Positions 49,080 through 49,134 of a stretch of 64,000 nucleotides of DNA are shown here, in pieces. The stretch is taken from assembly GCA_964019425.1 (NCBI GenBank), contig OZ025792.1:620001-684000 (forward strand). Reading direction: 5' to 3'. Every line of letters starts with the position of its first letter. The first letter of the stretch is position 1. The stretch is from Flectonema sp. DT1601. Its lineage: Eukaryota. The translations under genes were made by a program, and so were the position numbers. The notes under the pieces are model-generated. The model saw nothing but the letters and a program-made list of their open reading frames with translations, made no database searches and had not been told where the DNA came from.

Positions 49080-49134
49080 CCATACTGATGAGAGAGAATA
49101 GAGGTAAGAGGTATATGGATTACTCTCGAAACCT
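49080..49134 (+). ncRNA. candidate hammerhead ribozyme, non-circularly permuted
   Basis: CCATA-CTGATGA-GAGAG ... AGGT-A-TATGG ... CTCTC-GAA-ACCT: all core nucleotides plus stems of 5, 5 and 4 bp. Confidence 0.55.

Follow-up and report, generated by a model that had tools for sequence, protein, structure and literature searches.

The order core, site, GAAA of the three conserved hammerhead blocks was named type CSG by Eckert 2023 (PMC10085705), where it was reported from two soil-metagenome sequences, called CSG-1 and CSG-2, both of which cleave in vitro. According to the accessible text of that paper, no type-CSG RNA was found in the genome of any known organism. The literature searched here, which lay mostly outside subscription journals and took in the accessible parts of PMC13725137 and PMC11472068, held no paper placing type CSG in a eukaryotic genome, a retroelement or a diplonemid. 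Hammerhead catalysis uses G12 as the base and the 2'-OH of G8 as the acid, as described for the pseudoknot-containing hammerhead 8YDC (Zhan et al. 2024, PMC11300833).

Among retroelements, the Penelope-like elements Naiad and Chlamys are described as mostly lacking canonical hammerheads (Craig 2021, PMC8557442). In the accessible part of this source, eight Naiads are flagged 'HHR_half_core', the halves of the core lying 35-50 nt apart. For short non-coding hammerhead repeats in animals, the non-LTR retrozymes, it has been proposed that Penelope-like elements mobilise them (accessible text of bioRxiv 10.64898/2026.07.22.740005).

Here, we describe a hammerhead motif in a dispersed repeat of the window, i.e. 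the whole 64-kb stretch of DNA that was analysed. With a probability of about 0.6, the locus is read as a type-CSG hammerhead whose self-cleavage is predicted after A49113 and which lies in the 3' end of a Penelope-like retroelement, or of a non-coding derivative of such an element, in a host that is likely a diplonemid.

Block order and predicted fold of the motif

The motif lies in repeat unit Z and is referred to as copy Z. All core bases (CUGANGA, GAAA and UH) are present, and the blocks follow each other 5' to 3' as C (core), S (site) and G (GAAA). The coordinates and pairings given in a sequence-only reading of the window were all borne out by the sequence (Table 1), as was the description of the motif as a non-circularly permuted, pseudoknotted hammerhead: a descriptor built to accept the three blocks in all six orders, run on both strands of the window, found copy Z as its single match. 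The circular block order and three-way junction of hammerhead types I, II and III are absent from it. In 300 local dinucleotide shuffles, no Watson-Crick-only match in any block order was obtained; when G-U pairs were allowed, the same shuffles gave 11 matches of any order, one of them CSG. Rfam returned no hammerhead at the gathering score across the entire window and none at E up to 10 between 46400 and 49800, where 23 weak, unrelated matches were listed, in line with the expectation that a standard hammerhead search would miss the motif.

Table 1. Positions, in the window, of the ribozyme parts, the repeat units and their flanking repeats
Feature	Position	Strand	Remarks
Stem I, copy Z	49080-84 with 49114-18	+	5 pairs
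Catalytic core CUGAUGA (block C), copy Z	49085-91	+	G5 = 49087
Stem II, copy Z	49092-96 with 49123-27	+	5 pairs; G10.1 = 49092
Stem III, copy Z	49109-12 with 49131-34	+	4 pairs
Block S, copy Z	49109-49113	+	Stem III 5' strand and GUA triplet; H17 = A49113
Block G, copy Z	49123-49134	+	Stem II 3' strand, GAAA 49128-31, stem III 3' strand
Fourth helix, 5' strand	49068-77	+	Pairs with 49099-108; connects stems I and II
Fourth helix, 3' strand	49099-49108	+	Abuts stem III, 0-nt linker
Closing helix (predicted)	49010-19 with 49137-46	+	10 perfect pairs, probability 0.96-0.98; encloses ribozyme and two hairpins
Degenerate CSG-order hammerhead in unit Y	48761-48828	+	Core at 48778; predicted site 3' of 48808
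Repeat unit Z	48985-49260	+	Intact ribozyme, 126 nt from unit 3' end
Repeat unit Y	48743-48970	+	Divergent relative; ribozyme 142 nt from unit 3' end
Repeat unit B	47149-47327	+	Decayed ribozyme; 75% identity, E 9e-18
Repeat unit D	61027-61129	+	3' tail only, without ribozyme
Unit X, second repeat family	48536-48730	+	Same C-rich site; no hammerhead detected
Direct repeats of D	61011-61026 (left), 61130-61145 (right)	+	16/16 identical, C-run start
Direct repeats of Y, C-rich	48731-48742 and 48971-48982	+	12/12 identical
C-rich direct repeat separating Y from Z	48971-48983	+	Left repeat of Z
Degenerate C-rich repeat right of Z	49261-49281	+	13 nt, 2 mismatches to left repeat

The 12-nt segment that the sequence-only reading took for a linker spanning stems II to III is not single-stranded in our model. 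Ten of its 12 bases pair with the leader as a fourth helix, and the start of the ribozyme is therefore placed at 49068. This helix comprises 10 bp including one G-U (duplex -11.5 kcal/mol). Among 5118 tiled 25-mers of the window, only one binds the linker as strongly, and 42 can form a run of at least 10 pairs with it, G-U counted. Four folds contain this helix; three of them gave it a pair probability of 0.92-1.00, and that of 49030-49200 gave 0.45-0.49. With the 5' part of the unit included and the transcript reaching at least 49150, the fourth helix and stem III had probabilities of 0.98 and 0.95. The segment being mostly helix, a monomer fold is favoured, as in published CSG ribozymes, and copy Z would fold in this way; a dimer, which the sequence-only reading held plausible alongside a pseudoknotted monomer, need not be invoked.

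The + strand of 49005-49150 folded at a z of -4.38 and the - strand at -2.86; for the complete unit Z, the z was -3.15. The 86-nt ribozyme region as a nested fold is unremarkable (z -0.51), as expected with two of its helices being pseudoknots; in nested folding, two loops hold the stem I and stem II strands, which stay free for pseudoknot pairing. On the proposed pathway, the fourth helix and stem III would form first, adjoining each other, and stems I and II would form afterwards as two pseudoknots, giving the usual hammerhead core. A helix sequestering the core (49086-92 with 49161-67) was considered as a switch; its probability reached 0.47 in some truncated transcripts, and it was not adopted because this fell to 0.00 once the 5' part of the unit was present.

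Taken as a type-CSG fold, copy Z is with little doubt real, and it is quite likely to cleave itself. By analogy with the tested CSG ribozymes, the cut is predicted 3' of A49113.

Pattern scans of metagenome contigs, viral contigs and prokaryote genomes revealed no sequence relative outside the window. The family-specific pattern had three matches in metagenome contigs, none of which folds as CSG; a second pattern on viral contigs gave four loci and the prokaryote genomes six, all without CSG. One weak CSG match among the 120 viral loci listed was rejected, its fourth helix being only 4 bp. Several matches from phage and bacterial contigs resemble ordinary hammerheads whose stem II carries a long insert, and none of these is CSG.

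The repeat family, its insertion sites and the host

Copy Z belongs to a family with four copies in the window, units Z, Y, B and D, which are related in their 3' parts and variable at their 5' ends; all lie on the + strand. This supports the earlier statement that the motif is part of a dispersed repeat on the sense strand. Only Z is intact. Outside the ribozyme, the tails are homologous, the score being reached by 8 of 2000 shuffles for Y-Z and by 0 of 2000 for both Y-D and Z-D.

Unit Y carries a second, degenerate motif 305 nt upstream of that of Z, head to tail. A relaxed descriptor found these two motifs in the window and six CSG-order matches in 1000 shuffles. Copy Y is judged from its sequence to be probably impaired: its core has a 1-nt insertion, positions 10.1/11.1 hold C-A and its fourth helix is weak. 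Pairs of Z and Y were counted from core landmarks, since MAFFT did not keep Y, Z and B in register. Sixteen of the 26 stem bases differ; among the 13 pairs of stems I-III, six are changed on both sides yet paired, five are unchanged, none shows a one-sided change and two, both in stem II, are broken. Compensation thus concerns 6 of 13 pairs in a comparison of two sequences only, and the nominal nulls (2/200000 and 11/500000) overstate it, because Y was noticed via its pairing. In unit B the ribozyme is decayed, with an altered core, loss of G12 and a broken stem I. Of the two properties to be checked in the family according to the sequence-only reading, stem covariation was seen between Z and Y, and the complete invariant core was found in Z alone, neither Y nor B retaining it.

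Direct repeats starting with a C-run flank three of the four units (D, Y and Z); for unit B, a flanking direct repeat was searched for and not found. The 16-bp repeats of D are likely a target-site duplication. Direct repeats of variable length together with 5' truncation at insertion sites are the footprint of target-primed reverse transcription, and the repeat is most probably retrotransposed. Runs of at least six, counted between 23.5 and 64 kb, comprise 20 C-runs on the + strand and two G-runs, so that the + orientation of the copies may follow the supply of targets. X, Y and Z are stacked at a single C-rich site.

The second family, to which unit X belongs, has copies at 48536-48730, 53617-53722 and 54065-54131, all on the + strand at C-rich sites and with direct repeats of 9-12, 11 and 68 nt; the 5' part of the longest copy contains several short segments complementary to one another. 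At 61130-61248 and 49744-49785, shortly upstream of two start codons, C-rich tracts are followed by AG. These may be trans-splice acceptors, and unit D is inserted in one of the two tracts.

The host is likely a diplonemid, as judged from a single protein search. For one protein of the window, two matches other than itself were returned: at 71%, an unnamed protein from a transcriptome and, at 45% over 98% (E 7e-71), a protein of Diplonema papillatum. From 23.5 kb onward all long ORFs lie on one strand, and one-strand polycistronic clusters are the gene organisation described for diplonemids (accessible text of PMC10161547). A search of 168 translated window stretches (6 + 15 + 147, the 147 having been picked from 178 filtered short frames) detected neither a reverse transcriptase nor a GIY-YIG domain. 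Motif patterns for a Penelope-like reverse transcriptase, run on viral contigs, gave 0, 0 and 7 loci, none recognisable as reverse transcriptase by eye.

Other contents of the window include AT-rich arrays with units of about 110-150 nt in both orientations (4279-9882, 13062-16353, 21917-22899 and 27087-27436), near which transposase fragments occur (DDE_Tnp_1_7 at 6785-7810, E 8.5e-9, and a weak DDE_1 at 26142-27140), and a tandem array of period 32 nt at 2127-3226. The ORF fragment at 2-487, which by its motifs we take to resemble a DIRS-type RNase H, gave only a weak carbonic anhydrase match in Pfam. The ORFs 20221-20694 and 23573-24898, the second with a weak integrase-core match (E 0.026), are identical in their last eight residues, suggesting that both run in frame into a shared repeat end. 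A gene of the RidA/L-PSP family is located at 29431-29886 (E 5e-36).

The proposed element and its alternatives

The ribozyme is proposed to be part of the 3' terminal region of the element, where its cut would shorten long read-through or tandem transcripts to element RNA. Copies that keep the ribozyme whole would derive from uncut, re-ligated or tandem/circular RNA, because core and tail are parted by the cut. An autonomous partner, which is probably Penelope-like, would supply the reverse transcriptase for insertion at C-runs. For the host, cleavage of a polycistronic precursor between genes would probably be of little cost.

Several observations bear on the nature of the partner. As in Penelope-like elements, the hammerheads are found near the 3' ends of the units, and the units are truncated at the 5' end and, as in Chlamys, lie at C-runs, neither of the latter two features being unique to Penelope-like elements. 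Identical partial-tandem terminal repeats were not seen in the units of the window; Penelope-like elements can have partial tandem copies that form pseudo-LTRs, and Y and Z stand head to tail but are divergent and have a C-rich repeat between them. A four-helix CSG fold was recognised by eye in six 3' ends from the nematode part of the Naiad consensus file (supplement of PMC8557442), with a fourth helix of 9-16 bp, stem I of 5-6 bp, stem II of 4-5 bp and stem III of 5-11 bp; the stem letters vary between families. This reading was made without a script at the displayed places of seven 8-mers, by which motifs split by line breaks are missed. Three of the six folds stand immediately before the headers Naiad-3_Nbra, Naiad_Hcon and Naiad_Hpol, one of the six being that of Naiad_Hpol, and two stand slightly earlier in the file, where the neighbouring listed families are nematode. 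In two of the consensus ends, the distance from ribozyme to 3' end is about 90 and about 120 nt by eye, similar to the 126 and 142 nt here. In some other Naiads at the displayed places, the blocks are scrambled differently, the site and GAAA coming ahead of the core, and among the Chlamys entries at the displayed places no CSG fold was noticed. A report of Chlamys in diplonemids was not found in the literature searched, and Penelope-like elements are mentioned neither in the accessible text of the D. papillatum genome paper (PMC10161547) nor, by a five-term search, in its seven supplements.

The same ribozyme might instead belong to a SINE that depends for its movement on a LINE-type retrotransposon (SLACS, R2, jockey or ingi-like). 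The hammerhead would then release the SINE from a polycistronic transcript, a role that the HDV-like Pr77 ribozyme has for L1Tc/ingi in trypanosomatids. The variable-length direct repeats and 5' truncation fit such target-primed insertion, D. papillatum has many LINE-type reverse transcriptases (accessible text of PMC10161547), and the trypanosomatid ingi/L1Tc elements with a 5' ribozyme provide a Euglenozoan precedent (accessible text of PMC12278014). However, the predicted cut is internal, about 146 nt from the unit 3' end and not at the 5' edge, a poly(A) tail is missing and the same fold occurs, by eye, in the Naiad 3' ends, so that a SINE is an unlikely carrier. Y and Z could also be regarded as a tandem retrozyme, in which two cuts 305 nt apart free a monomer that circularises; the head-to-tail spacing of two CSG motifs and the stable fold of the Z unit speak for this arrangement. 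It is made quite improbable by the divergence of the neighbouring stems, by the core defects of Y and by the separate flanking repeats of each unit, as predicted for separate insertions. Tandem arrays of similar monomers, as in non-LTR retrozymes, are likewise not what is seen here. Reportedly, the hammerheads of non-LTR retrozymes are of type I.

With respect to its function, the earlier suggestion was a retrozyme-like element or a precursor-RNA processing site; the repeat resembles truncated retroelement 3' ends inserted at C-runs, and nothing here supports processing for the host. Adoption of the ribozyme by the host, for processing of the polycistronic precursor or for its decay, would agree with the sense orientation of every copy and with an intact Z among decayed relatives; the orientation may, however, follow the supply of C-runs, and we consider such adoption highly improbable. 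That copy Z is a chance match with no ribozyme history is extremely improbable. The ordinary stability of the nested 86-nt region and the weak CSG match on a viral contig would be compatible with chance; against it stand the strict descriptor, with matches in none of the 300 shuffles, the fourth helix, which is present though it was not sought, and a homologous copy with compensated stem pairs. A Penelope-like element or its non-coding derivative is the reading preferred here.

Comparison with type CSG and Penelope-like elements

The permutation described in the sequence-only reading is not new, having been published as type CSG (PMC10085705). Copy Z has every testable feature of this type, and its topology is therefore already known; the genomic retroelement setting is a variant that was not found in the literature searched. 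As judged from the accessible text of the CSG paper, copy Z shares with CSG-1 and CSG-2 the block order, all core bases, stems I-III and a similar size, as well as a helix between the 5' leader and the segment after stem II and a short link between stems I and II. In contrast, no stem letters are in common, the fourth helix has 10 bp versus 8 bp, and the cleavage triplet is GUA versus GUC; GUA is also found in listed Penelope hammerheads (accessible part of PMC8557442). Stem III has 4 bp, whereas the published CSG and the Naiad cases, as far as accessible, have 5-11 bp. The published CSG descriptor, as rebuilt from the accessible text, misses Z unless a linker of more than 10 nt and a stem III of three pairs are both allowed. 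CSG-1 and CSG-2 are host-less sequences from soil metagenome DNA, and copy Z lies in a eukaryotic nuclear repeat. In 8YDC a pseudoknot helix can act as helix II with a normal core; unlike copy Z, this ribozyme has a Pistol-like connectivity and one pseudoknot, and neither CSG nor SGC was found in a term search of the accessible text of that paper (PMC11300833).

Resembling the Naiad half-cores, the core halves of copy Z are 36 nt apart and near the 3' end. Unlike the units described here, the listed Naiads have animal hosts and are autonomous, and several prefer (TA)n. Chlamys is similar in its insertion at (C)n and its 5' truncation, has algae or protists as hosts and includes short non-autonomous derivatives such as MRC1 (all from the accessible part of PMC8557442). 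The non-LTR retrozymes have standard circular-order hammerheads in tandem arrays (accessible text of bioRxiv 10.64898/2026.07.22.740005), as opposed to the non-circular order and divergent neighbours of this locus.

We tentatively suggest, at slightly less than even odds, that a deep-branching Penelope-like lineage has scrambled hammerheads as its terminal ribozymes, with CSG common to nematode Naiads and an undescribed Penelope-like family of diplonemids targeting C-runs. If true, Penelope-like retroelements would extend to Euglenozoa, type CSG would gain its first hosts and a role, and the apparent absence of ribozymes in Naiads would be explained. A Penelope-like partner would be a new retroelement class for diplonemids. 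The Naiad CSG folds bear on the split hammerhead cores that, in the accessible part of PMC8557442, fit no descriptor. Compared with two similar, host-less sequences, the present locus adds an intact, unrelated genomic example of type CSG together with a compensated relative, and it points to retroelement 3' ends as a biological setting for this type.
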